Virus genome (UHGV): UHGV-0081093
Source of the DNA: a virus
Reading direction: 5' to 3' (one strand)
Length of the DNA stretch: 38,153 nucleotides
Within the stretch, counting starts at the first letter, position 1. Each line of letters opens with the position of its first letter. Positions 737-35,483 of the stretch are shown in pieces. Under the pieces are notes generated by a model that searched no databases, was not told the DNA's origin, and saw only the letters and a program-made list of their open reading frames with translations. Both the position numbers and the translations under genes were made by a program.

Positions 737-1006
737 TTACCTTAAACGCCAGGGGCCTCTATCTTCAATCTGTTCGACTAACCCCTCCTCTTCTAGTTCA
801 CGCAATAGTGCAACAACCCAATATTGTTGGTTCGAACTTGTTGCTTTCCGTTTTTCTCCCCAATCGAGGCCGCTTAGACGAAATACCTCAGCTTGCTTAA
901 CGCCGTTGCCGTTTTTTTGGGCATCTGGGTGAGTTTTAAGTACGGATAAAGCCAATTCTTTGGCTCTGTTGCGCAATTCCGCTCCCTGATGCTGAAACTT
1001 ATTCAT
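737..1006 (-). CDS. Hypothetical small protein (possible winged-helix DNA-binding protein) between attL and int
   Basis: 89-aa ORF with no larger competing ORF; charged, helical-looking sequence. Function not recognised. Confidence 0.4.
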   Translation of the reverse strand: MNKFQHQGAELRNRAKELALSVLKTHPDAQKNGNGVKQAEVFRLSGLDWGEKRKATSSNQQYWVVALLRELEEEGLVEQIEDRGPWRLR

Positions 1007-1064: not shown

Positions 1065-2096
1065 TCAAAAACTTGCTATTGATGTTGGTAGTGTTGCCAG
1101 CGGATTAAACCGTAATGCAGTTTCCAGGTGATCCGGTGCCAGATGTGCGTAACGCATAGTCATTTTTATATCGTGATGCCCGAGAATTTTTTGTAAGGCC
1201 AGGATATTTCCACCCGACATCATGAAGTGCGCCGCAAACGTATGGCGCAGAACGTGTGTCAGTTGACCGCGAGGGAGCACGATAGACGTTTTTTCCATCA
1301 CGGATAAAAATTGAAAATAGCAGTCTGTAAAGAAATTGAACCCATCAAGCGCCATGATCTCTTCGTAAAGCTCTTTACTGATAGGGATGCTTCTGTTTTT
1401 CTTCCCCTTCGTTCTTACAAAGGTAATTCGGTATTTGGTCACCTGTGAGCGGGTAAGATTTACGGCTTCACGCCAACGTGCGCCTGTGCTTAAGCATATC
1501 TTAACTACCAGTGCCAGAATTGGGTCCTGACGTTTGCAATCAGCCAGCAATTCAACAATCTGCTCATGGGTAAGCCATGCCATCTCTTTTTCTGCGATGG
1601 TGAATTTTCGCATGTTCTCCAGTGGGTTTGGATACGACCATTCGCCCAGGCGGGATAGTTCGCTAAAAACACTACTTAGATAGCTTTGCTCCAGGTTAAT
1701 GGTGACCGGGCTGGCTCCTTTCTTCCATTTCTCGCTGAAGTAGATCTCACCTGTCAGGCGTTTATCTCGATAGTGGGCAAACATTTTAGAGGTGAGATTG
1801 GTTGCAAGAGGATTGCCTAGAGCGTCAACCATCAGCAGCAATTTGTCATAGACATGCTGCCCAGCAGTCAGAGATTTACCATGTAATTTGAACCATAGCT
1901 CAACCACGTCTTTCAGGGTTCGACGATCCACTGATTCGCCCAGCCAGGGCTTTGATTCGGTTTCTTCCATCGTGTGACGCTCAAAAGCCAGAGCTTCGCC
2001 TTTGGTGGCGAATTGTTTACGCACACGACGCCCACTTCTTCCGGCGGGGTAACATTCGCAAAGCCATTTCCCTGTGGTGAGTTTTCGTACTGCCAT
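1065..2096 (-). CDS. int: Phage tyrosine integrase (186/P2-type)
   Basis: C-terminal catalytic region LSTGARWREA ... HVLRHTFAAHFMMSGGNILALQKILGHHDIKMTMRYAHL carries the R...HxxR...Y tyrosine-recombinase signature. Start taken at MAVRKLTTGKW (ATG 2096..2094), which matches remembered P2/186 Int N-termini; the track ORF extends further upstream to 2252. Confidence 0.88.
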   Translation of the reverse strand: MAVRKLTTGKWLCECYPAGRSGRRVRKQFATKGEALAFERHTMEETESKPWLGESVDRRTLKDVVELWFKLHGKSLTAGQHVYDKLLLMVDALGNPLATNLTSKMFAHYRDKRLTGEIYFSEKWKKGASPVTINLEQSYLSSVFSELSRLGEWSYPNPLENMRKFTIAEKEMAWLTHEQIVELLADCKRQDPILALVVKICLSTGARWREAVNLTRSQVTKYRITFVRTKGKKNRSIPISKELYEEIMALDGFNFFTDCYFQFLSVMEKTSIVLPRGQLTHVLRHTFAAHFMMSGGNILALQKILGHHDIKMTMRYAHLAPDHLETALRFNPLATLPTSIASF

Positions 2097-2284
2097 AAAA
2101 AATGCCCTCCAGTAGAGAGCATTTTTACTGTATGTATAACCAGTGTCAATGTATGAAATCCTACGACCATACATCTCACTGAAGCCATAATGAAGTTGGC
2201 TATTCTTTTTGCTATGTGAGCATGTAACTTTTGCGGTTAACCTGCGGCTCATTTTTATTTTAGACGCAGATATAAAAGCAAAAG

Positions 2285-2476
2285 TTATCGTGAGTTTTTA
2301 GTACAGATTTTTTTGGATTTACTAATAGTTCCATCATTGCAAACGAATTTGCCATCTGAGGTACAGTGAGAAACACCTCCCTTTTTCCCTGAGCAGGGAT
2401 AATTTCTAGCATAGGTAGTTAGTGGGTTTAATAACAAAGAACATGACAAAACCACAAAAAATACCTTACCAAGCAT
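2285..2476 (-). CDS. Hypothetical small cysteine-rich protein with signal-peptide-like N-terminus (possible moron)
   Basis: 63-aa ORF in an AT-rich gap between int and the repressor gene. Hydrophobic N-terminus ([19 protein letters not shown]) followed by a Cys-rich segment. Could be spurious. Confidence 0.3.
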
Positions 2477-2491: not shown

Positions 2492-3148
2492 CTATTTAAC
2501 ATACTTGACTGTTAAACTTATAATTTTACCAATTATTTCAATGTCTTCTATCTTGCATTCGAAGGCTCTGTTTCCACCCTCGACGAAGATTCTTCCACCG
2601 GGTAAACGAGTAATGTCACGGATCGTTATTTCGCCATCAATACTTATTACCCATTTACCATCACGTATATCATCAAATTCTTTATCACAAATAAATTCAG
2701 AATTGTTATCTGTGATGACAAAAGGTTTTTTAAACGTAGAGGGTAGAAATCCCTTATCAAAAATATAAAAACCGTCTTTCTGCAATGCTCCATCAGACAA
2801 TAAATATTTTTCTACTTCTATAGTATTTGTATTTGCTGATGCTTGCTTTGAACCATGCCCTGTTGTTAGCCAATTAAGCGAGGTGCCCGTTTCAAGGGCG
2901 CACTGGATTACCCAATCTGCTGGAAAAATATCACGCATATAGCGCGTTGCCATGGTGCTCTTAGAAACACCTAAATGATCACAGAGAGCCTGACGGGTAC
3001 CGAACCCATATGCTTCAACTAAACGTTCTATGGCTTTCTTACCGCCGCTATTGAAATCCACAAGTCCTCCAAAGAAATCCGAAATTCGTTGACAGATTCC
3101 AAAAGCGATCTTAAAGTTGAACCAGAAGTGTTCTTTTGGAGCCTTCAC
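2492..3148 (-). CDS. Immunity repressor, 186 CI-like (HTH N-domain plus C-terminal domain)
   Basis: Divergent from the apl/cII-like genes and adjacent to int. Internal HTH-like segment LGVSKSTMATRYMRD...ALETGTSLNWLTTG. No obvious S24 autocleavage motif. True start may be the internal GTG near 3085 (GGAGGA RBS just upstream), which would give about 197 aa. Confidence 0.7.
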   Translation of the reverse strand: MKAPKEHFWFNFKIAFGICQRISDFFGGLVDFNSGGKKAIERLVEAYGFGTRQALCDHLGVSKSTMATRYMRDIFPADWVIQCALETGTSLNWLTTGHGSKQASANTNTIEVEKYLLSDGALQKDGFYIFDKGFLPSTFKKPFVITDNNSEFICDKEFDDIRDGKWVISIDGEITIRDITRLPGGRIFVEGGNRAFECKIEDIEIIGKIISLTVKYVK

Positions 3149-5275: not shown

Positions 5276-6129
5276 GCACCATCCTGAAATGGGCGGGAAA
5301 TAAAACCGCAATTATGTCCGAACTGAAAAAATACCTACCTGCTGGCCCGCGACTGGTTGAACCTTTCGCGGGTTCCTGTGCTGTGATGATGGAGACGGAT
5401 TACCCCAGCTATCTGGTTGCGGATATTAATCCTGATTTAATCAACCTCTATAAAAAGATTGCCGCTGATTGCGAGGCGTTTATATCGCGGACCAGAACTT
5501 TGTTTGAGGAAGCAAACAGTGACCTAGCTTATTACAACATAAGGCAGGAGTTTAATTACTCAACTGAAATTACTGATTTCATGAAAGCGATATATTTCCT
5601 GTATCTCAATCGTCATGGTTACCGTGGGTTATGTCGCTATAACAAGAGCGGGCATTTCAACATTCCCTACGGTAATTATAAAAATCCGTATTTCCCTGAA
5701 AAAGAAATTCGCGCATTTGCAGAAAAAGCCCAGCGGGCAACGTTTATCTGCGCCAGCTTTGATGAAACGCTGGCGATGTTGAAGGCGGGGGATGTGGTGT
5801 ATTGCGATCCGCCGTATGACGGCACGTTTTCCGGTTATCACACTGACGGCTTCACTGAAGATGACCAGTATCACCTGGCATCCGTTCTTGAATATCGATC
5901 ATCAGAAGGTCATCCGGTCATTGTTTCTAACAGTGACACATCCCTGATCCGTTCGCTGTATCGCAATTTCACTCACCACTACATCAAGGCAAAACGCAGC
6001 ATCGGCGTGTCAGCTGGCGAGAGTAAATCTGCAACAGAAATCATTGCTGTTTCCGGGTCGCGCTGCTGGATGGGATTTGATCCTTCGCGTGGCGTGGATA
6101 GTTCTGCTGTGTACGAGGTGCGTGTATGA
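5272..6129 (+). CDS. dam: DNA adenine methyltransferase (Dam-like, N6-A MTase)
   Basis: N-terminal SAM-binding region (KWAGNK...EPFAGSCAV) and catalytic DPPY motif. ATG 5272 with GGAGGTG RBS; the track ORF from 5212 is an upstream extension. Confidence 0.85.
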
Positions 6130-8540
6130 GTCATGACGATATGAGCAACTCTAGCGGCTTTAACGAGGCTGCCGCAGCATTTTCATGGAACGGCCCGAAA
6201 AAGGCCATTAACCCTTATCTGGATCCGGCGGAAGTTGCGCCGGAGTCTGCACTTTCAAACCTGATCACTCTGTACGCTGCCGATAACGAGCAGGAACAAC
6301 TGCGCCGCGAGGCACTGAGTGAGCAGGTCTGGGAGCGTTATTTCTTTAATGAATCCCGTGATCCTGTCCAGCGCGAAATGGAGCAGGATAAGCTCATTAG
6401 CCGGGCAAAGCTGGCGCATGAGCAGCAGCGTTTTAACCCGGACATGGTCATTCTGGCAGATGTCAGCGCCCAGCCTTCTCATATCAGCAAGCCGCTGATG
6501 CAACGTATCGAATACTTCAGCAGCCTGGGCAGGCCAAAGGCTTATTCCCGCTATTTGCGTGAGACGATTAAGCCATGTCTGGAGCGACTGGATTGTGTAC
6601 GTGACAGTCAGCTATCTGTTTCTTTCCGTTTTATGGCAAGCCATCAAGGGCTGGAGGGGCTGCTGATCCTGCCTGAAATGAGCCAGGATCAGGTGAAACG
6701 CCTGTCCACCCTGGTAGCAGCGCATATGAGCATGTGTCTTGAGGCCGCTTGTGGTGATTTGTACGCCACCGATGACGTTAAGCCAGAAGAAATCCGCAAG
6801 ACATGGGAAAAGGTGGCTGCGGAAACCCTGCGTCTGGATGTTATCCCGCCTGCGTTTGAGAAACTTCGTCGGAAAAGAAACCGCCGCAAACCTGTGCCCT
6901 ATGAACTCATACCGGGTTCGCTGGCACGTATGCTTTGCGCCGACTGGTGGTATCGAAAATTGTGGAAGATGCGTTGCGAATGGCGGGAAGAGCAGTTGCG
7001 TGCTGTCTGTCTGGTCAGCAAAAAAGCATCTCCCTATGTCAGCTATGAAGCAGTGACGCATAAACGTGAGCAGCGCCGCAAGTCGCTGGAGTTTTTCCGT
7101 TCTCATGAACTGGTGAACGAAGACGGAGACACGCTGGATATGGAAGATGTGGTAAACGCCAGCAGCAGCAACCCGGCACATCGCCGCAATGAGATGATGG
7201 CCTGCGTTAAAGGTCTGGAGCTTATCGCGGAAATGCGCGGTGACTGCGCCGTTTTCTACACCATCACCTGTCCGTCACGTTTCCATTCCACGCTCAATAA
7301 CGGCAGACCAAACCCGACCTGGACAAATGCGACGGTAAGACAAAGCAGTGATTATCTGGTCGGCATGTTTGCTGCATTTCGTAAGGCGATGCACAAAGCC
7401 GGATTGCGGTGGTATGGCGTGCGGGTGGCTGAGCCGCATCATGACGGTACTGTGCACTGGCATCTCATGTGCTTCATGCGTAAAAAAGACCGCCGCGCCA
7501 TCACTGCATTACTGCGTAAGTTTGCCATCCGTGAAGACCGCGAGGAACTGGGCAATAACACGGGGCCACGCTTTAAGTCTGAGCTGATTAACCCGCGCAA
7601 AGGAACGCCGACAAGCTACATCGCGAAATACATCAGTAAGAACATTGACGGGCGTGGTCTGGCTGGCGAGATCAGCAAGGAAACGGGTAAATCCCTGCGT
7701 GATAACGCTGAATACGTTAATGCCTGGGCGTCTCTGCATCGTGTTCAGCAATTCCGCTTCTTTGGCATTCCGGGGCGTCAGGCTTACCGTGAACTGCGAT
7801 TGCTGGCTGGTCAGGCGGCAAGGCAGCAGGGTGACAAAAAAGCAGGTGCGCCGGTACTGGATGATCCGCGTCTTGATGCCATTCTGGCTGCTGCTGATGC
7901 TGGCTGTTTTGCCACCTACATTATGAAGCAGGGCGGCGTGTTGGTTCCCCGCAAATATCACTTGATCAGAACCGCTTATGAAATCAACGAAGAGCCGACC
8001 GCCTATGGTGATCACGGTATTCGTATTTATGGCATCTGGTCACCCATTGCAGAGGGCAAGATCTGCACTCATGCAGTGAAGTGGAAAATGGTTCGTAAGG
8101 CCGTTGACGTTCAGGAGGCGGCAGCCGACCAGGGCGCTTGCGCCCCTTGGACTCGTGGCAATAACTGTCCCCTTGCTGAAAATTTGTACCAACAAGGGAA
8201 AGACAAATCAGCTGATGGGGATACCAGAACGGATATCACCCGCATGGATGACAAGGAATTGCACGATTACCTGCACAGTATGAACAAAAAAGAGCGTCGG
8301 GAACTGGCTGCAAGGTTACGCCTGGTGAAACCGAAACGGCGTAGAGACTACAAACAGCGAATTACAGATCATCAGCGACAGCAGCTCGTCTATGAACTGA
8401 AGTCCAGAGGATTTGATGGCAGCGAGAAAGAGGTCGATTTACTCCTTCGCGGCGGCAGCATTCCGTCAGGAGCAGGCCTGCGTATTTTCTATCGGAACCA
8501 GCGTTTGCAGGAAGATGATAAGTGGCGGAACCTGTATTAA
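6126..8540 (+). CDS. A: Replication initiation endonuclease (P2 gpA / 186 RepA family, rolling-circle)
   Basis: 804 aa, in the position of P2 gene A; contains a VHWHLMCF HxH-type motif typical of rolling-circle initiators. Confidence 0.85.
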
Positions 8541-8632
8541 TTACGCGGGTTAACAATTCGTGCTCTTAATAATACCAGGTATATCAGGCTGATGAACGTA
8601 AAAAAACGTTTTACATCAGTAAGATTATTATA

Positions 8633-8652
8633 TACTGTAAATATAAACAGTG
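8633..8652. promoter_or_regulatory. LexA (SOS) box TACTGTAAATATAAACAGTG
   Basis: Matches the CTGT-N8-ACAG consensus with an AT-rich spacer; sits 40 bp upstream of the 8694 ORF and the DinI-like gene. Confidence 0.6.
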
Positions 8653-8693
8653 GTTATGCATACAGTATTGCTTGTGGTGTCATAGGAGGAAAG

Positions 8694-8882
8694 ATGCAGG
8701 ACTATTTTTTGGAGTCTTTGAAGCTCCAGCGCATTGATTTTTTTCTTAAGCTTGTAGCGGCTAGTGAGTGTAGTGATGAAGAGAAGGGGCTGGCCCTGCA
8801 GTGGGTTTCTGAACTGACAGATGAACTCATGGCAAAAATCAGAACCCACGAATACAACCGCTCAATGGATGTCATCAGCTGA
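8694..8882 (+). CDS. Hypothetical small protein, first gene of putative SOS-controlled operon
   Basis: ATG 8694 preceded by an AGGAGG RBS and lying downstream of the LexA box. The longer track ORF from 8592 would contain the LexA box. Confidence 0.45.
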   Translation: MQDYFLESLKLQRIDFFLKLVAASECSDEEKGLALQWVSELTDELMAKIRTHEYNRSMDVIS

Positions 8883-8892
8883 GGTGACTTTT

Positions 8893-9126
8893 ATGCGCAT
8901 TGAAATAATGATCGATAAAGAGCAGAAGATTAGCCAGTCTACCCTGGACGCCCTTGAATCCGAGCTTTACCGCAATCTGCGCCCCCTGTATCCCAAAACG
9001 GTAATTCGCATTCGCAAAGGTAGCTCTAACGGTGTGGAACTGACCGGACTGCAACTGGACGAAGAAAGGAAGCAAGTGATGAAAATTATGCAGAAGGTGT
9101 GGGAAGACGACAGCTGGCTGCATTAA
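8893..9126 (+). CDS. DinI-like protein (possible Tum-type antirepressor)
   Basis: MRIEIMIDKEQ...LYRNLRPLYPKTVIRIRKGSSNGVELTGLQLDEERKQVMKIMQKVWEDDSWL resembles DinI (MRIEVTIAK..., ...ETWESADDW). GAGGTG RBS before ATG 8893. Confidence 0.65.
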   Translation: MRIEIMIDKEQKISQSTLDALESELYRNLRPLYPKTVIRIRKGSSNGVELTGLQLDEERKQVMKIMQKVWEDDSWLH

Positions 9127-9156
9127 GAAACGTTGCCCCCAAGAGGATTCATTCTG

Positions 9157-9327
9157 ATGGGGGACTATTTTGGGCAACGAGTGAAACGAGGCGTTAGTTG
9201 GACGGCCATTTTGATAAGTGATCGTCCGCTTTTTGTTCTGAGTTCAAGCGATGGATTTAACACACTGGTTGAAGCAGAAGTATCTAAGTTCAATTTATAT
9301 TATTTGAAGGGCACTGGTCTGATGTAG
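9157..9327 (+). CDS. Hypothetical small protein
   Basis: Short ORF with an AAGAGG RBS; weak support. Confidence 0.25.
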   Translation: MGDYFGQRVKRGVSWTAILISDRPLFVLSSSDGFNTLVEAEVSKFNLYYLKGTGLM

Positions 9328-9413
9328 TACGATTTTTGCCGGAGATGGCATGTTCTATATTGATCTCATCCATATAATGATTGGTATTATTAGCTTAGTT
9401 TAAAGAGGATTGA

Positions 9414-10991
9414 ATGGATATCAACTATGTTGTTTCAAAAATGGAGTTCGTAGATGATCTTATTAATGCAGGTTCATTTGATTCTGCCTATAAAAATGTA
9501 AAGGATATTCTTAACGGTATCGATGAGATAAATACAATCAAAGAAAATAGAATAATTATATTATCTAATTTGGCCGGAAATCTTATTGATATCGGAAGTT
9601 TTAGTAATGTAAAAAATATAGCGGAGGAAGGCTTAAATATCTTTATAAACAATAAAAATGAATTTCTGACTATAATGAAAGAATCCTTATATTACTATAA
9701 CTTGGCAAATGGAATGAGCGCAGTTCTTGATTTTAATCCTAATGACAATGCAGATATTGATAGTTTCATTAAGCTGAATGATGTAAAAAATAATTACTGG
9801 AAAGCGTTTAAACTTTCACAAGAAGATGGATGGGTGCCCCCTGATTTAATAGTTAATCTAGCTAATGTATTAAAAAAACAATATCGTATATCTGAATCAA
9901 TGGATTATTATGAACAAGCAATATCTATTGATAACTCAATTCCTCAGGCATGGGTAAACAGATCTGAGGCATTAGAATTGCTTAATGAATTATCTACAAC
10001 ATATACATATAAAATGATTAAAGAAGTTATTCGAGGTTATGAGTGTGCAATAAAGTCAGGGAAATGTTTTCCTTCATGGAAGGTTGCTCTTCAAAGAAAA
10101 ATAAAGTACAACGAAAGTATATTGAGTGAATCATGTGTATATGGCATAGAGGATATAAGTACAGATGAAAGGCTCACGCAGGAGGAGTATGATACTTTAT
10201 CAAACTACCAGAGGTTTTGTATAGATAATAATCTAATGTTGTCTGATCATTCGCTATATTGCAATTGTTATGCGTCATCTAAAGATAATATAACTATTGC
10301 TACCACCGAGGAAGGTGTGTTTGGTGATTTTATAGTGCCAATGGAAATGGTGTTAAATAGACTTAAAGCTGAGTATTCCTTAGCACGAAAAATGTTTTTT
10401 GAATATAAGGTTGATAGTGAGTTTTTTGATGAGGATTCGGAGGTATGTTATTCTGAATTGTATAATGGAGAAATATTGTATGAAAATGTTGAGAAGTTAA
10501 GGGTTGCATTTAGAGCTTGCTTTGGTATCTTGGATAAAATAGCAGTTGCTCTGTGTCAATTATTTGATTTAAAACCAGATAGAGGACATATATACTTTCA
10601 TAACTTCTGGCGGATTAGTGATGAAAAAAGAAAGCTTAAAATAAACAAAATAAATAATAAAGGATTGCTGGGTTTGTTTAGTATTGCTATGGATTTGAAT
10701 GATAAAAATGGTGAGCTTGCTTTTTTTAAAGAATGGAGGAATGATTTAGAACATAAACTGTTAGTTATTCACGAGAAAGACATGTTAGTTGATTTATATA
10801 ATTCTTATGGGTTTTTTGATGAGGTGAGGTTTGTTGAGAAAGAAAAGTTTGAGAAACAGCTCTTACAACTCATGAAAATTGTGAGATCAGCCGTTATTCT
10901 TTTTGTGTTTACCATACGTATAGAGGGGAAAAAAAGTATTCCTAAAGATATGTTGACCATTAAAAATACCATCGAGAGAAAAGTATTGTAG
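9414..10991 (+). CDS. AT-rich cargo protein with TPR-like repeats and a C-terminal HEPN-like RNDLEH motif; candidate abortive-infection / defence effector
   Basis: 525-aa ORF in a block of very low GC with N/K/I-rich codon usage, unlike the rest of the prophage; AGAGGA RBS. TPR-like segments (e.g. YYEQAISIDNSIPQAWVNRSEALELL) and RNDLEH (Rx4H) near residue 445. Located between gene A and the cos-like site. Confidence 0.7.
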   Translation: MDINYVVSKMEFVDDLINAGSFDSAYKNVKDILNGIDEINTIKENRIIILSNLAGNLIDIGSFSNVKNIAEEGLNIFINNKNEFLTIMKESLYYYNLANGMSAVLDFNPNDNADIDSFIKLNDVKNNYWKAFKLSQEDGWVPPDLIVNLANVLKKQYRISESMDYYEQAISIDNSIPQAWVNRSEALELLNELSTTYTYKMIKEVIRGYECAIKSGKCFPSWKVALQRKIKYNESILSESCVYGIEDISTDERLTQEEYDTLSNYQRFCIDNNLMLSDHSLYCNCYASSKDNITIATTEEGVFGDFIVPMEMVLNRLKAEYSLARKMFFEYKVDSEFFDEDSEVCYSELYNGEILYENVEKLRVAFRACFGILDKIAVALCQLFDLKPDRGHIYFHNFWRISDEKRKLKINKINNKGLLGLFSIAMDLNDKNGELAFFKEWRNDLEHKLLVIHEKDMLVDLYNSYGFFDEVRFVEKEKFEKQLLQLMKIVRSAVILFVFTIRIEGKKSIPKDMLTIKNTIERKVL

Positions 10992-11313
10992 TATATTTTC
11001 ATCGAGCGATGAAACGGTCTGTTTTTCTTTATAGTTTTGTCATAAAAAAGAGATTTCCTGCTTAAAATTTGGCTATTACAGAGCAACTATGTATGTTCCT
11101 CGCTCACAGTAGAGCTTCATCTTTGTAAGTCTGTATGTTTCGTTTTTCAAGTGGTCATTCAGATACGGACTTTCACTTCTCTTAGACAGTGCATGACTAT
11201 GCTGCATGAAATCGCATGATCGTTTAAGGATCGTTTTTGCTAAGGCTCGCCAGAACTAGCGGGCTTTTACGTAGAACATGCAGGTGCATGAAAACCACTA
11301 CATAAAGCGGGCA

Positions 11314-11332
11314 GGCGTGGCGGGGATACGAG
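11314..11332. other. Putative cos site core (GGCGTGGCGGGGATACGAG)
   Basis: First 13 nt match the cohesive-end sequence of P2/186 as I remember it (GGCG[A/T]GGCGGGGAAAGCA[C/T]). Lies in a 474-bp non-coding gap upstream of the Q-P packaging genes. Confidence 0.4.
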
Positions 11333-11465
11333 CGCGCGCTGTGAGCTTAAAAAGCTAAATTCTAGTTTGCTATGATTCTCAAAAATTGCGTGTTAAGCAA
11401 AATAGCTACGGTTATACTGTGTACAGAAAGAACTATCAAAATTAACAATAAAGGGAGGGGATGAG

Positions 11466-12485
11466 ATGACTGCAACTACACATCAGAAGCCTCTTAATGC
11501 TTTCTTTCGCCGAGTAGGGGCGCTTGATAGGCGTTTAGCCGAAGGGCTATCAAAGTTACTTCCTGATTGGTGGGATGATTCGCTTAATCATTCAGCGAGC
11601 ATTAGCCAGCAGGTAATTTTAGGTTTGGCAAAGTTTGCGAATCTGGATTTGGCGACGGTCGTCAATCCTACTGCTGAATTGAGATTCAATGAGTCAGTAA
11701 GAAAGTATAAACACGCGGCAAATAAATCGGTCGAAGAGTTGCAGGCTGCTACGGCTGTGGTTGATGGTATGGCAAAAATCGCAGCTTCAGTTGCTAAAAG
11801 ACCATATATGGGGCTTTCATCTGCTCGTGATATACGTGAGATAATCCTTTCTCAAGGAAAGCCTTGGGTAGATTTCCTGTCACTCTTAGAATTTGCTTGG
11901 TCTGCGGGTATCCCTGTTTTGTATATGACGGATATTCCTGCCAGGAAAAAGATGGATGCAGTTGCTATAAAGGTTTCTGATCGCCCAGTTATTGCTCTTA
12001 CAAAAAAACATAAACATGCAAGTGGTATTTTGTTTAGTTTGGCGCACGAGTTAGGGCATATCGCTTGCGGCCATCTTGAGGATAACTCATTGTTAATTGA
12101 TGAAAAAATCAATGAAGATGATGTCGAAAATCCTCAAGAAATAGAAGCCAATGCTTACGCAATAGAACTCCTTAATGGCAGACCAGATGCTGCATTCCAT
12201 AGCAATGGTTGGATTTCTGCTGAAGTGCTGGCTTCGGAAGCTTTGCGTATAGGGCGTCACAATAAGGTTGATCCTGGCCACGTAGCTTTAAATTACGCCA
12301 AAACAATGGGGCGTACGCATACAGGGAATTTTTTCCCTGTATGCGGAAGTGCATTAAACATACTTTATCCTCGTTTGGATTGGATGGAGCATGCTGCCGC
12401 AATTTTTCTTGAATATGTTGATGAAGAGAAGGTATCGGAAGACAAGTTTGAAATGTTATGCAGAATGAACAACATTGAGGTGTAA
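11466..12485 (+). CDS. Metallopeptidase-domain protein (HEXXH; ImmA/IrrE / M78-like), gene 1 of cargo operon
   Basis: 339 aa with AGGGAGGGG RBS. Contains LAHELGHIACGHLED, i.e. an HEXXH zinc-peptidase motif in a context typical of ImmA/IrrE-type domains. Confidence 0.7.
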   Translation: MTATTHQKPLNAFFRRVGALDRRLAEGLSKLLPDWWDDSLNHSASISQQVILGLAKFANLDLATVVNPTAELRFNESVRKYKHAANKSVEELQAATAVVDGMAKIAASVAKRPYMGLSSARDIREIILSQGKPWVDFLSLLEFAWSAGIPVLYMTDIPARKKMDAVAIKVSDRPVIALTKKHKHASGILFSLAHELGHIACGHLEDNSLLIDEKINEDDVENPQEIEANAYAIELLNGRPDAAFHSNGWISAEVLASEALRIGRHNKVDPGHVALNYAKTMGRTHTGNFFPVCGSALNILYPRLDWMEHAAAIFLEYVDEEKVSEDKFEMLCRMNNIEV

Positions 12486-12490
12486 CGCCA

Positions 12491-13129
12491 GTGGCTGTAT
12501 TACTTGATAATGATGTAGTACTGAAATTGGCTCAACTTGATCTGCTTGCTGATGGTTGCAAATTACTTACAAGTAAGTACGGCCAACTTTATGTTTTAGA
12601 TACGCTTTTTTATCAGTTACGAGGTAAGTCAGCTCTTCGTCGTTATGGTGCTGAGGCATTGGAACGCGTACAGCAATGCCTGTCAGAGAGGGCATTTTTG
12701 CCGTTTGAAGAGTTAATCACGGATCAACGTTTGATTGAATTACAGAACAATTTCGAGAATCTTGATGAAGGCGAGATGCGTTTGCTTCAAGGTTTAATAA
12801 ATAATCATGATCTGCTTCTATCAGGCGATAAACGCTTTTTGAAGGCAATTGCTGAGACTGGATTTATAGAGGAAGCATCTCTCAATAATCGTTTTGTATG
12901 TTTAGAACAAGTGGTTTGTTTTCTTATCAATGAGTTATCTCTTGATCATGTCAACGCAAAAGCCTCGATTGCTTTTCAGGGTGAATGTAGAGTTGATAGT
13001 GCTTTAAGAACATGTATTGGTTACGGGCGTACGCATGAGCACGTTATGGAAGGGATATTTCACCAACTTCGTGGGCTACCTGAAACTCTTCTATCAATAG
13101 AGGTGCATTGGAGTTTGACTCAACCTTAA
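12491..13129 (+). CDS. Hypothetical protein, gene 2 of cargo operon (possible PIN-like nuclease domain)
   Basis: GTG start 5 nt after the gene-1 stop. N-terminus VAVLLDNDVVLKLAQLDLL resembles the first strand/Asp of PIN domains, with further acidic positions (NLDEGE, SGDKRF) at spacings compatible with a PIN fold. Inference only. Confidence 0.6.
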   Translation: MAVLLDNDVVLKLAQLDLLADGCKLLTSKYGQLYVLDTLFYQLRGKSALRRYGAEALERVQQCLSERAFLPFEELITDQRLIELQNNFENLDEGEMRLLQGLINNHDLLLSGDKRFLKAIAETGFIEEASLNNRFVCLEQVVCFLINELSLDHVNAKASIAFQGECRVDSALRTCIGYGRTHEHVMEGIFHQLRGLPETLLSIEVHWSLTQP

Positions 13130-35313: not shown

Positions 35314-35339
35314 TAAATTTCAGGCAACAAAAAACCCAT
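35314..35339. repeat. attR core (26-bp direct repeat)
   Basis: Identical to 591..616. The following hairpin (CCCATCAACC ... GGTTGATGGG, 35335..35371) preceded by an A-run probably acts as the ybjL terminator on the minus strand. Confidence 0.8.
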
Positions 35340-35483
35340 CAACCTTGAACCGAAATGGCGGGGTTGATGGGCTCCACAAAATGGGGACATCAAAGAAAAG
35401 CAGTGGCACTAATTAAGACTGATGCCCTGCGGAAAAGTTCTGCGGTTGTGCAAAAAAATTTCATTTTCAGGGCAACTTCAGTT

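Follow-up and report, generated by a model that had tools for sequence, protein, structure and literature searches.

The stretch of DNA analysed here (the window, 38,153 nucleotides) carries, directly right of replication gene A, what is with a probability of roughly 85% a module for SOS induction of a P2-like prophage of 186/Fels-2 type, in which a LexA-repressed operon encodes the antirepressor TumA and the modulator TumB. In the resting lysogen, host LexA would occupy the operator at 8633-8652, which lies over the -10 element of a p95-like promoter, and would keep tumA and tumB silent. Upon DNA damage, RecA-stimulated cleavage of LexA would free the promoter, and TumA, a 62-aa protein predicted to consist of two helices, would then bind the 186-type CI repressor and prevent it from binding its operators, so that the early lytic promoter might fire while CI itself stays uncleaved. 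TumB would act, like the DinI-like products made separately from 186 tum, as a modulator of RecA filaments or of induction timing, and not as an antirepressor. The initial annotation of this DNA had proposed SOS induction by antirepression in the manner of phage 186, and in its support stand the LexA box that covers the -10, the coding region related to Tum and the 186-type CI, which carries no cleavage site. For the window itself, the reading draws on sequence features, homologies and the conservation of operator and promoter; LexA control of p95, antirepression by Tum, the loss of Fels-2 in lexA survivors and the role of PSP3 tumA come from published work on systems that are near-identical or homologous to this one.

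Prophage setting and spread of the module

Between rcdA and the RybB sRNA gene, the window holds a complete prophage of the Peduoviridae, P2-like and of the 186/Fels-2 type. The reference annotation was that of PGAP on a related strain, which is 99.8% identical. The left arm of the prophage runs in the order integrase, a YdcA-like small gene, cI, apl/cox, cII, several small early genes, dam and gene A. The tumA-tumB locus stands directly right of gene A and is followed by about 4 kb of cargo and then by the convergent portal gene. The region between gpA and gpQ is an established defence hotspot (PMC9122126, PMC13586616). The features of the prophage and of the module are as follows.

20-586: rcdA, flanking the prophage on one side
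1065-2252, minus strand: integrase
2492-3061, minus strand: cI, 186-type immunity repressor and presumed target of TumA (189 aa with the PGAP-style start from the related strain)
6126-8540: replication gene A (gpA; Pfam Phage_GPA, E 3.5e-128)
8610-8638, plus strand: predicted p95-like promoter (-35 TTTACA at 8610-8615, 17-nt spacer, -10 TACTGT at 8633-8638)
8633-8652, plus strand: predicted LexA operator (SOS box) TACTGTAAATATAAACAGTG, overlapping the -10
8694-8882, plus strand: tumA, 62-aa predicted antirepressor (Shine-Dalgarno AGGAGG at 8684-8689)
8893-9126, plus strand: tumB, 77-aa DinI-family protein, predicted RecA/SOS modulator
35326-35404: RybB sRNA gene, the other flank of the prophage (Rfam, 105 bits)

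Related loci were sought separately with an alignment of the 62-aa family and with an alignment of 186-type Tum, and 173 loci were gathered: the window itself, loci from annotated records of phages and E. coli genomes, and 160 IMG/VR contigs. The two coding regions are split in 87 of these loci and fused as in 186 in 79, while seven carry a tumA-type ORF without a detected DinI partner. CTG-N10-CAG occurs no more than 200 bp upstream of tumA or tum in 171 of the 173 loci, which span several Peduoviridae genera, and across the box-bearing loci the half-sites CTG and CAG are kept and the central spacer is variable. Of the two loci that lack the box, one has a CAG-to-TAG point mutation and the other is rearranged, its promoter region having been replaced. 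In complete E. coli genomes, the tumA-tumB module was found in 1125 of 5426, about a fifth. The module would thus decide whether a common prophage family of E. coli, Salmonella and Klebsiella wakes after DNA damage, for example upon fluoroquinolone treatment.

The CI repressor and the two tum genes

The presumed target of TumA matches Pfam Phage_CI_repr, the N-terminal HTH domain (E 3.2e-31), as well as Phage_CI_C (E 4.6e-29), and its closest solved relative is 186 CI (PDB 2FJR, E 1.5e-31, residues 9-182). By its domain content, the window CI is a 186-type repressor and not a self-cleaving repressor of the LexA or lambda CI type. It is 89% identical to its nearest relative (strain 160-11H1), 42-58% identical to the other examined CI types that share this TumA, and at most 57% identical to any CI within the phage collection. 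Since the window CI diverges in this way from the other CIs found with the same TumA, a cognate interaction between TumA and CI is assumed.

The pairing of the two proteins was compared across the gathered loci. A TumA of 100% identity accompanies 18 CI clusters (clustered at 90% identity), between which overall CI identity goes down to 34%, and the immunity and tum regions therefore reassort freely. The 186-type Tum accompanies 17 other CI clusters, so that the two Tum types have no CI cluster in common. The C-terminal domains of CI have a median identity of 32% within the TumA group and 29% to the 186 group, whereas the N-terminal domains have a median of 68% (range 53-92%) within the TumA group and 39% between groups. 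The residues that are conserved within a CI group and differ between groups are few, and all of them lie in the N-terminal domain. This pattern fits a TumA that recognises the N-terminal domain of CI and serves many immunity types. It is to be taken as a lead only, because common descent within each phage genus could have produced it as well. That one identical TumA occurs with at least 18 CI immunity types points to an antirepressor of broad range, through which co-resident prophages might induce one another.

The same data bear on the alternative that survives best, namely that the operon is SOS-regulated and the prophage is not induced by it, recombination having left TumA mismatched to CI, so that the module would now act only as a DinI-type SOS modulator or in cross-talk with other prophages. 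The free reassortment of one TumA with so many CI clusters would be expected from such a history, as would the distance of the window CI from every CI in the phage collection. However, the N-terminal domain is relatively conserved among the CI types paired with this TumA, and the absence of any CI cluster in common with 186-type Tum fits a retained recognition surface. Promoter and operator are constrained in all these backgrounds, and 11 sampled loci combine the CI cluster of the window with this TumA. A mismatch is thus improbable, and we infer that the TumA of the window would inactivate the CI of the window, acting through the CI N-terminal domain.

Which of the two small proteins would be the antirepressor was approached through their relation to 186 Tum. 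The 62-aa ORF is 98.4% identical to Fels-2 STM2728. BLASTP with this ORF gave no alignment with 186 Tum or with PSP3 TumA, and the homology of TumA and Tum therefore depends on profile comparison and on intermediates. When the profile of the 62-aa family was compared by hhalign with the N-terminal halves of 186-type Tum, residues 4-44 aligned with residues 4-44 over 41 columns (95.9%, E 5.8e-9). As for intermediates, Yersinia enterocolitica phages have a small gene that is hit by tblastn with the 62-aa ORF as well as by tblastn with 186 Tum, and in one of these phages it bears the annotation 'tum protein'. An exhaustive profile search of 1.84 billion representatives returned 85 clusters for TumA, nearly all of them short stand-alone proteins, whose distant members bridge the gap between the 62-aa family and 186-type Tum. 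Fused 186-type Tum was not reached by this search, which therefore gives no independent confirmation of the homology.

Other searches place TumA in no described family. Pfam and PADLOC gave no match for the 62-aa ORF or for a 56-aa ORF, and a profile search of PDB sequences returned nothing meaningful for TumA. The predicted structure is a two-helix hairpin (pLDDT 90.5), for which Foldseek against the PDB and viral structures found generic helical hairpins only (E ≥ 0.4). By position the protein belongs with Tum and TumA: it is encoded right of gene A, the predicted LexA-controlled promoter precedes its gene, and the CI of the phage is of the 186 type.

TumB is a DinI-family protein that matches Pfam DinI (PF06183) over profile positions 1-63 of 63 (81.3 bits against a cut-off of 24.2, E 6.6e-23). 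It is 100% identical to STM2726.1 of Fels-2 (Fels-2 TumB) and 78% identical to PSP3 TumB, and it shares 41% identity with the C-terminal half (residues 71-145) of the 146-aa protein 186 Tum. By homology, then, the 62-aa ORF and the DinI-like ORF together are the two halves of 186 Tum. In the 186 record, the DinI-like C-terminal half of Tum is also produced separately, from internal starts, and these products are annotated as modulators; by analogy, the probable role of TumB is to modulate either RecA filaments or induction timing. E. coli DinI (PDB 1GHH), a member of this Pfam family, matches over its full length (E 2.7e-6); TumB differs from it in being phage-borne and paired with an antirepressor.

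A second alternative would make the DinI-like TumB itself the antirepressor and reduce the 62-aa ORF to an accessory protein or a leader peptide. TumB is indeed homologous to the C-terminal half of 186 Tum, and tumB lies within the LexA-controlled operon. However, the 186 record attributes inhibition of CI DNA binding to the full-length Tum product only, and the seven loci with a tumA-type ORF have it behind a LexA box without a DinI gene; in four of the seven this TumA-only state was confirmed from the records, with nothing between the tumA-type ORF and the portal region. Lemire et al. 2011 (PMC3121763), who cite Christie by way of Bunny et al., state that Fels-2 and PSP3 carry tum in two pieces, of which the upstream one is the antirepressor; for PSP3 tumA, this statement is a personal communication given there at second hand. 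In addition, deletions of the dinI homologues of the Gifsy phages had no significant effect on induction (Lemire et al. 2011, PMC3121763). TumA is preferred to TumB as the antirepressor because the PSP3 and Gifsy data agree and because the DinI-like products of 186 are labelled modulators, and an antirepressor role of TumB is even less probable than a mismatch of TumA and CI.

The 62-aa ORF, rather than the DinI-like ORF, is thus most likely the Tum-type antirepressor, since its family aligns with residues 4-44 of 186 Tum, since loci with TumA and without a DinI partner exist, and since the upstream gene is the antirepressor according to Lemire et al. 2011. The initial annotation had placed a Tum-type antirepressor in a LexA-controlled operon and had tentatively looked for it in the DinI-like protein; the Tum-related operon stands, and the assignment moves to the 62-aa ORF.

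Predicted LexA-controlled promoter, hairpins and cargo

The predicted LexA operator TACTGTAAATATAAACAGTG differs from the idealised palindrome TACTGTATATATATACAGTA at 3 of 20 positions, with both half-sites intact. It is the sole site within three mismatches of TACTGTATATATATACAGTA in the 38 kb window, and none of 100 dinucleotide-preserving shuffles gave any match. CTGT-N8-ACAG with an AT-rich spacer likewise occurs only once in the 38 kb, at this box. A near-consensus LexA operator just upstream of the 62-aa ORF and the DinI-like gene, as first annotated, is therefore confirmed at 8633-8652.

The annotated p95 promoter of 186 has TTCACA, 18 nt and a TACTGT -10, and its LexA site begins at that -10. 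The predicted promoter of the window has the same layout, the LexA box beginning at the TACTGT -10 in both, and the predicted box would thus be positioned to occlude the promoter with the geometry of 186 p95. A generic promoter and terminator scan with fixed criteria flagged neither this promoter nor the hairpin after tumB, the promoter being missed because TACTGT agrees with TATAAT at 3 of 6 positions only. The -35 hexamer does not vary across 68 distinct split-type sequences, and their mean minor-allele frequency is 0.005-0.009 in the spacer and the box, compared with 0.052 in the leader just downstream.

That the palindrome is a chance match without a regulatory role would be conceivable in an AT-rich region and with a box three mismatches away from the ideal. 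This is most improbable in view of the shuffles and of the single occurrence in 38 kb, and the position of the box is kept in 171 of 173 loci with conserved CTG and CAG around a variable spacer. Moreover, an identical box is present in Fels-2, whose loss permits survival without LexA: the Salmonella survivors of lexA loss were all Fels-2-free (Bunny et al. 2002, as summarised in PMC12626290). Induction through lambda-like, RecA-stimulated self-cleavage of CI, with the tum operon irrelevant, is hardly tenable either, since the Peptidase_S24 match in the C-terminal region of CI that might suggest it is partial (profile positions 56-116 only) and below the Pfam cut-off (E 0.009, 16.1 against 23.3 bits), no Ala-Gly or Cys-Gly dipeptide occurs anywhere in the 189-aa CI, the domain families and the structure of 186 CI are matched, and 186 CI is inactivated by Tum without being cleaved (PMC3121763, PMC7708051). 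The earlier remark that the CI-like repressor shows no obvious autocleavage motif thus holds.

Downstream of tumB, the plus strand carries a series of conserved elements, into which cargo is placed.

9135-9171, plus strand: conserved stem-loop (stem 9135-9141 / 9158-9165, inner stem 9145-9147 / 9152-9154, then UAUUUU)
9175-9197, plus strand: conserved non-coding motif CAACGAG-N5-CGAGGCGTTAG, unique in the window
9199-9238, plus strand: second terminator-like hairpin (hairpin 9199-9229, then a U-run; -12.7 kcal/mol, z -2.47, 3 of 200 shuffles folding as well)
9414-10991, plus strand: slot-1 cargo gene, 525 aa, TPR and LA2681-type HEPN, candidate defence gene
11186-11337, plus strand: conserved non-coding segment with the usual intrinsic terminator of the operon (terminator 11245-11268)

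The first stem-loop begins 9 nt past the tumB stop codon and has a folding energy of -14.8 kcal/mol. Pairing holds in 98.9% of its cells across 19 distinct loci although the sequence changes; the figure for shuffles is 80.4% (0 of 500 as high), and it falls to 32-59% when the partner is slid. Compensatory changes are seen in 6 of the 10 pairs. The U-run that follows is UAUUUU in the window, and there is none in the commonest allele. The 186 record places the partial terminator t95a at the same relative position, and the stem-loop is a candidate equivalent of t95a by analogy. The motif CAACGAG-N5-CGAGGCGTTAG lies within 110 nt of the tumB stop codon in 65 of 79 split-type loci and is also present in PSP3; just past it, the sequences diverge and variable cargo begins.

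A third small ORF (9133/9157-9327), which fell within the span 8633-9327 first annotated as the operon, was rejected as an operon gene. Its start lies inside the hairpin and has no ribosome-binding site, PGAP did not call it in the 99.8%-identical strain, and its frame (9157-9327) stops after 8 codons in sister alleles; it is probably not a gene.

The slot-1 cargo gene matches Pfam HEPN_LA2681 (E 4e-38) and is named 'LA2681 family HEPN domain-containing protein' by PGAP. The conserved segment beyond it is homologous to positions 9700-9857 of L001, which lie about 75 nt past the tumB stop codon in phage vB_EcoM-813R9; the terminator hairpin folds with -12.7 kcal/mol in the window and with -23.4 kcal/mol (z -4.6) in 813R9. 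This segment of about 150 nt, with a strong intrinsic terminator at its end, is present in 73 of the 79 split-type loci. It follows within 100-200 nt and without a cassette in 34 of the 79, and a gene cassette stands between motif and segment in 39, the window included. A second cargo slot past the terminator segment of the window holds an M78-peptidase-like gene and a gene for a 212-aa product. Rfam has no family matching the hairpin and motif region or the terminator segment, and when the cargo region was searched for repeats, none flanked the cassettes.

As the HEPN cassette lies upstream of the usual terminator of the operon, SOS read-through is geometrically allowed, and transcription from the p95-like promoter into the HEPN gene is possible as judged from this layout. 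The HEPN gene also shares the strand of the operon and falls within what was ancestrally the tumAB transcription unit, comparable to orf97 in 186. Strong read-through is opposed by the first hairpin with its short U-run, by the second hairpin with a U-run, and by a perfect TATAAT at 9373-9378, which lacks a good -35 and is a candidate -10 for the HEPN gene itself, whose start codon follows 35 nt on. It is also opposed by the orientation of the cargo, the largest slot-1 ORF being co-oriented in 26 of 39 loci only; a general operon rule for cargo was rejected on this count. More ambitiously, stem-loop and motif might form a leaky attenuator that leaves slot 1 of the gpA-gpQ hotspot inside the LexA-controlled unit, with co-oriented genes, the HEPN gene of the window among them, being switched on by SOS together with prophage induction, a proposal that is doubtful and put forward tentatively. 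If true, it would extend the tum-orf97 arrangement of 186 to the defence cargo of Fels-2-type prophages. With a cargo cassette between tumB and the terminator in about half of the split-type loci, it may be asked whether the defence genes of the hotspot are SOS-regulated; SOS, LexA and DinI are unmentioned in the two accounts of the P2 hotspot (PMC9122126, PMC13586616).

Comparison with known systems

The switch has already been described in 186, Fels-2 and PSP3, and the window holds a further, ordinary copy with nothing new in kind. What is new is of small scale: a hairpin that covaries, a slot for cargo within the operon and the occurrence of one TumA allele with many CI types.

Fels-2 is the closest of the described systems, with STM2728 and STM2726.1 at the same site right of gene A and an identical LexA box in addition to the near-identical proteins. 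In PSP3, tumA and tumB occupy the same site in the same two-ORF arrangement, and the record describes tumA as 'similar to 5' end 186 tum; UV induction of prophage' and tumB as 'similar to dinI and 3' end of 186 tum'. The differences from both lie in the downstream cargo and in the immunity repressor, where the window CI reaches an identity of about 43.5% with its counterpart in the Fels-2-like phage RE2010 and of 35.5% with PSP3 CI; in addition, PSP3 TumA is beyond the reach of BLASTP.

Phage 186 itself shares the LexA box over a TACTGT -10, the Tum halves that match the two ORFs of the window, the 186-type CI, the hairpin right after the coding region and a same-strand accessory gene downstream (orf97 in 186). 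In 186, the halves are fused in one 146-aa ORF, whereas in the window a stop codon ends the first and 10 nt lie before the second, and t95a has a clear U-run and folds with -19.2 kcal/mol, compared with -14.8 kcal/mol for the hairpin of the window. LexA controls p95 of 186, and Tum sequesters CI without cleaving it (PMC7708051, PMC3121763); Tum has been reported to bind CI and block its binding to the operator (Shearwin 1998, as cited in PMC3121763 and PMC7708051). A more distant likeness is that to the dinI-gfoA/gftA operons of Gifsy-1, -2 and -3, which are LexA-repressed and encode a DinI homologue together with a small antirepressor that binds an uncleaved repressor (Lemire et al. 2011). 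They differ from the module of the window in that dinI comes first, so that the gene order is reversed, in that the phages are lambdoid, and in that the repressor belongs to another family.

TumA and its repressor partners

A single identical 62-aa TumA, the predicted antirepressor, was found alongside 18 clusters of CI, the 186-type immunity repressor (loci L012-L172 together with the window, cI at 2492-3061 and tumA at 8694-8882). Across these 18 clusters, the CI N-terminal domains share 53-92% identity and the C-terminal domains 23-97%, with a median of 32%, and no CI cluster was common to this TumA and the 186-type Tum among the loci compared. Taken together, the similar N-terminal domains, the divergent C-terminal domains and the lack of cluster overlap suggest, at the sequence level, that TumA might be an antirepressor of broad range, with the N-terminal domain of CI as the part it recognises. 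Since one TumA accompanies many CI types, cross-induction is possible; up to three copies of the module occur per E. coli genome (1160 places in 1125 genomes).

Moreover, a LexA box followed by a tumA-type gene, without any DinI-like gene, is present in four Peduoviridae phages, ESSI2_ev015, ESSI-2, ENT90 and vB_YenM_324 (loci L006, L007, L008 and L009), which carry little or no cargo ahead of the portal region. This DinI-less arrangement appears to be the SOS module in its minimal form.

Predicted hairpins and a conserved motif around tumB

8871-8888, small hairpin GTCATCAGCTGAGGTGAC, covering the stop codon of tumA together with the ribosome-binding site of tumB (GAGGTG)
9135-9165, stem-loop directly 3' of tumB
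9175-9197, non-coding motif CAACGAG-N5-CGAGGCGTTAG, kept in Fels-2-like phages and PSP3

The position of the small hairpin is such that it could couple translation of tumB, the DinI-like gene, to that of tumA. It could also be a chance occurrence, as the scan returned three terminator-like hits where 1.3 were expected. The stem-loop after tumB shows strong covariation among 19 loci, with pairing in 98.9% of cells and compensatory changes in 6 of 10 pairs. Most of its alleles lack a U-run and, therefore, it may act as an attenuator or an mRNA-stabilising hairpin and not as a plain terminator. The variable cargo starts directly after the non-coding motif, which has no match in Rfam and no further copy in the window.

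Two cargo slots

9198-11185, HEPN_LA2681/TPR cassette in the first slot, between the tumAB module and the conserved segment
11186-11337, conserved 150-nt segment with the usual terminator
11466-12485, 339-aa protein with an IrrE/M78 peptidase domain, second slot
12491-13129, 212-aa protein, second slot, starting 5 bases after the 339-aa gene

Among loci with tumA and tumB as two ORFs, the first slot is occupied in 39 of 79, by about 17 cassette types, and its largest ORF has the orientation of tumAB in 26 of these 39. In the second slot, the 339-aa protein gave weak PADLOC matches to RmrA (E 7.5e-11) and PD-Lambda-2_B (E 1.8e-10), and no family match was found for the 212-aa protein; judged from sequence, the two genes may form a defence or regulatory pair.

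Prophage edges and insertion site

20-586, rcdA, left edge of the prophage
737-1006, minus strand, 89-aa ORF between rcdA and int
2285-2476, minus strand, 63-aa YdcA-family gene between int and cI, with a signal-peptide-like start
35326-35404, minus strand, gene for the RybB sRNA (105 bits in Rfam), at the right-hand edge of the prophage

Neither the 89-aa ORF nor the YdcA-family gene matched Pfam or PADLOC. The position between int and cI holds other genes in related phages, such as a 'chromosome segregation ATPase' in 813R9. The attachment site probably lies at or adjoining rybB, and the insertion site of this prophage is the same as that in E. coli strain 160-11H1 and phage vB_EcoM-813R9.
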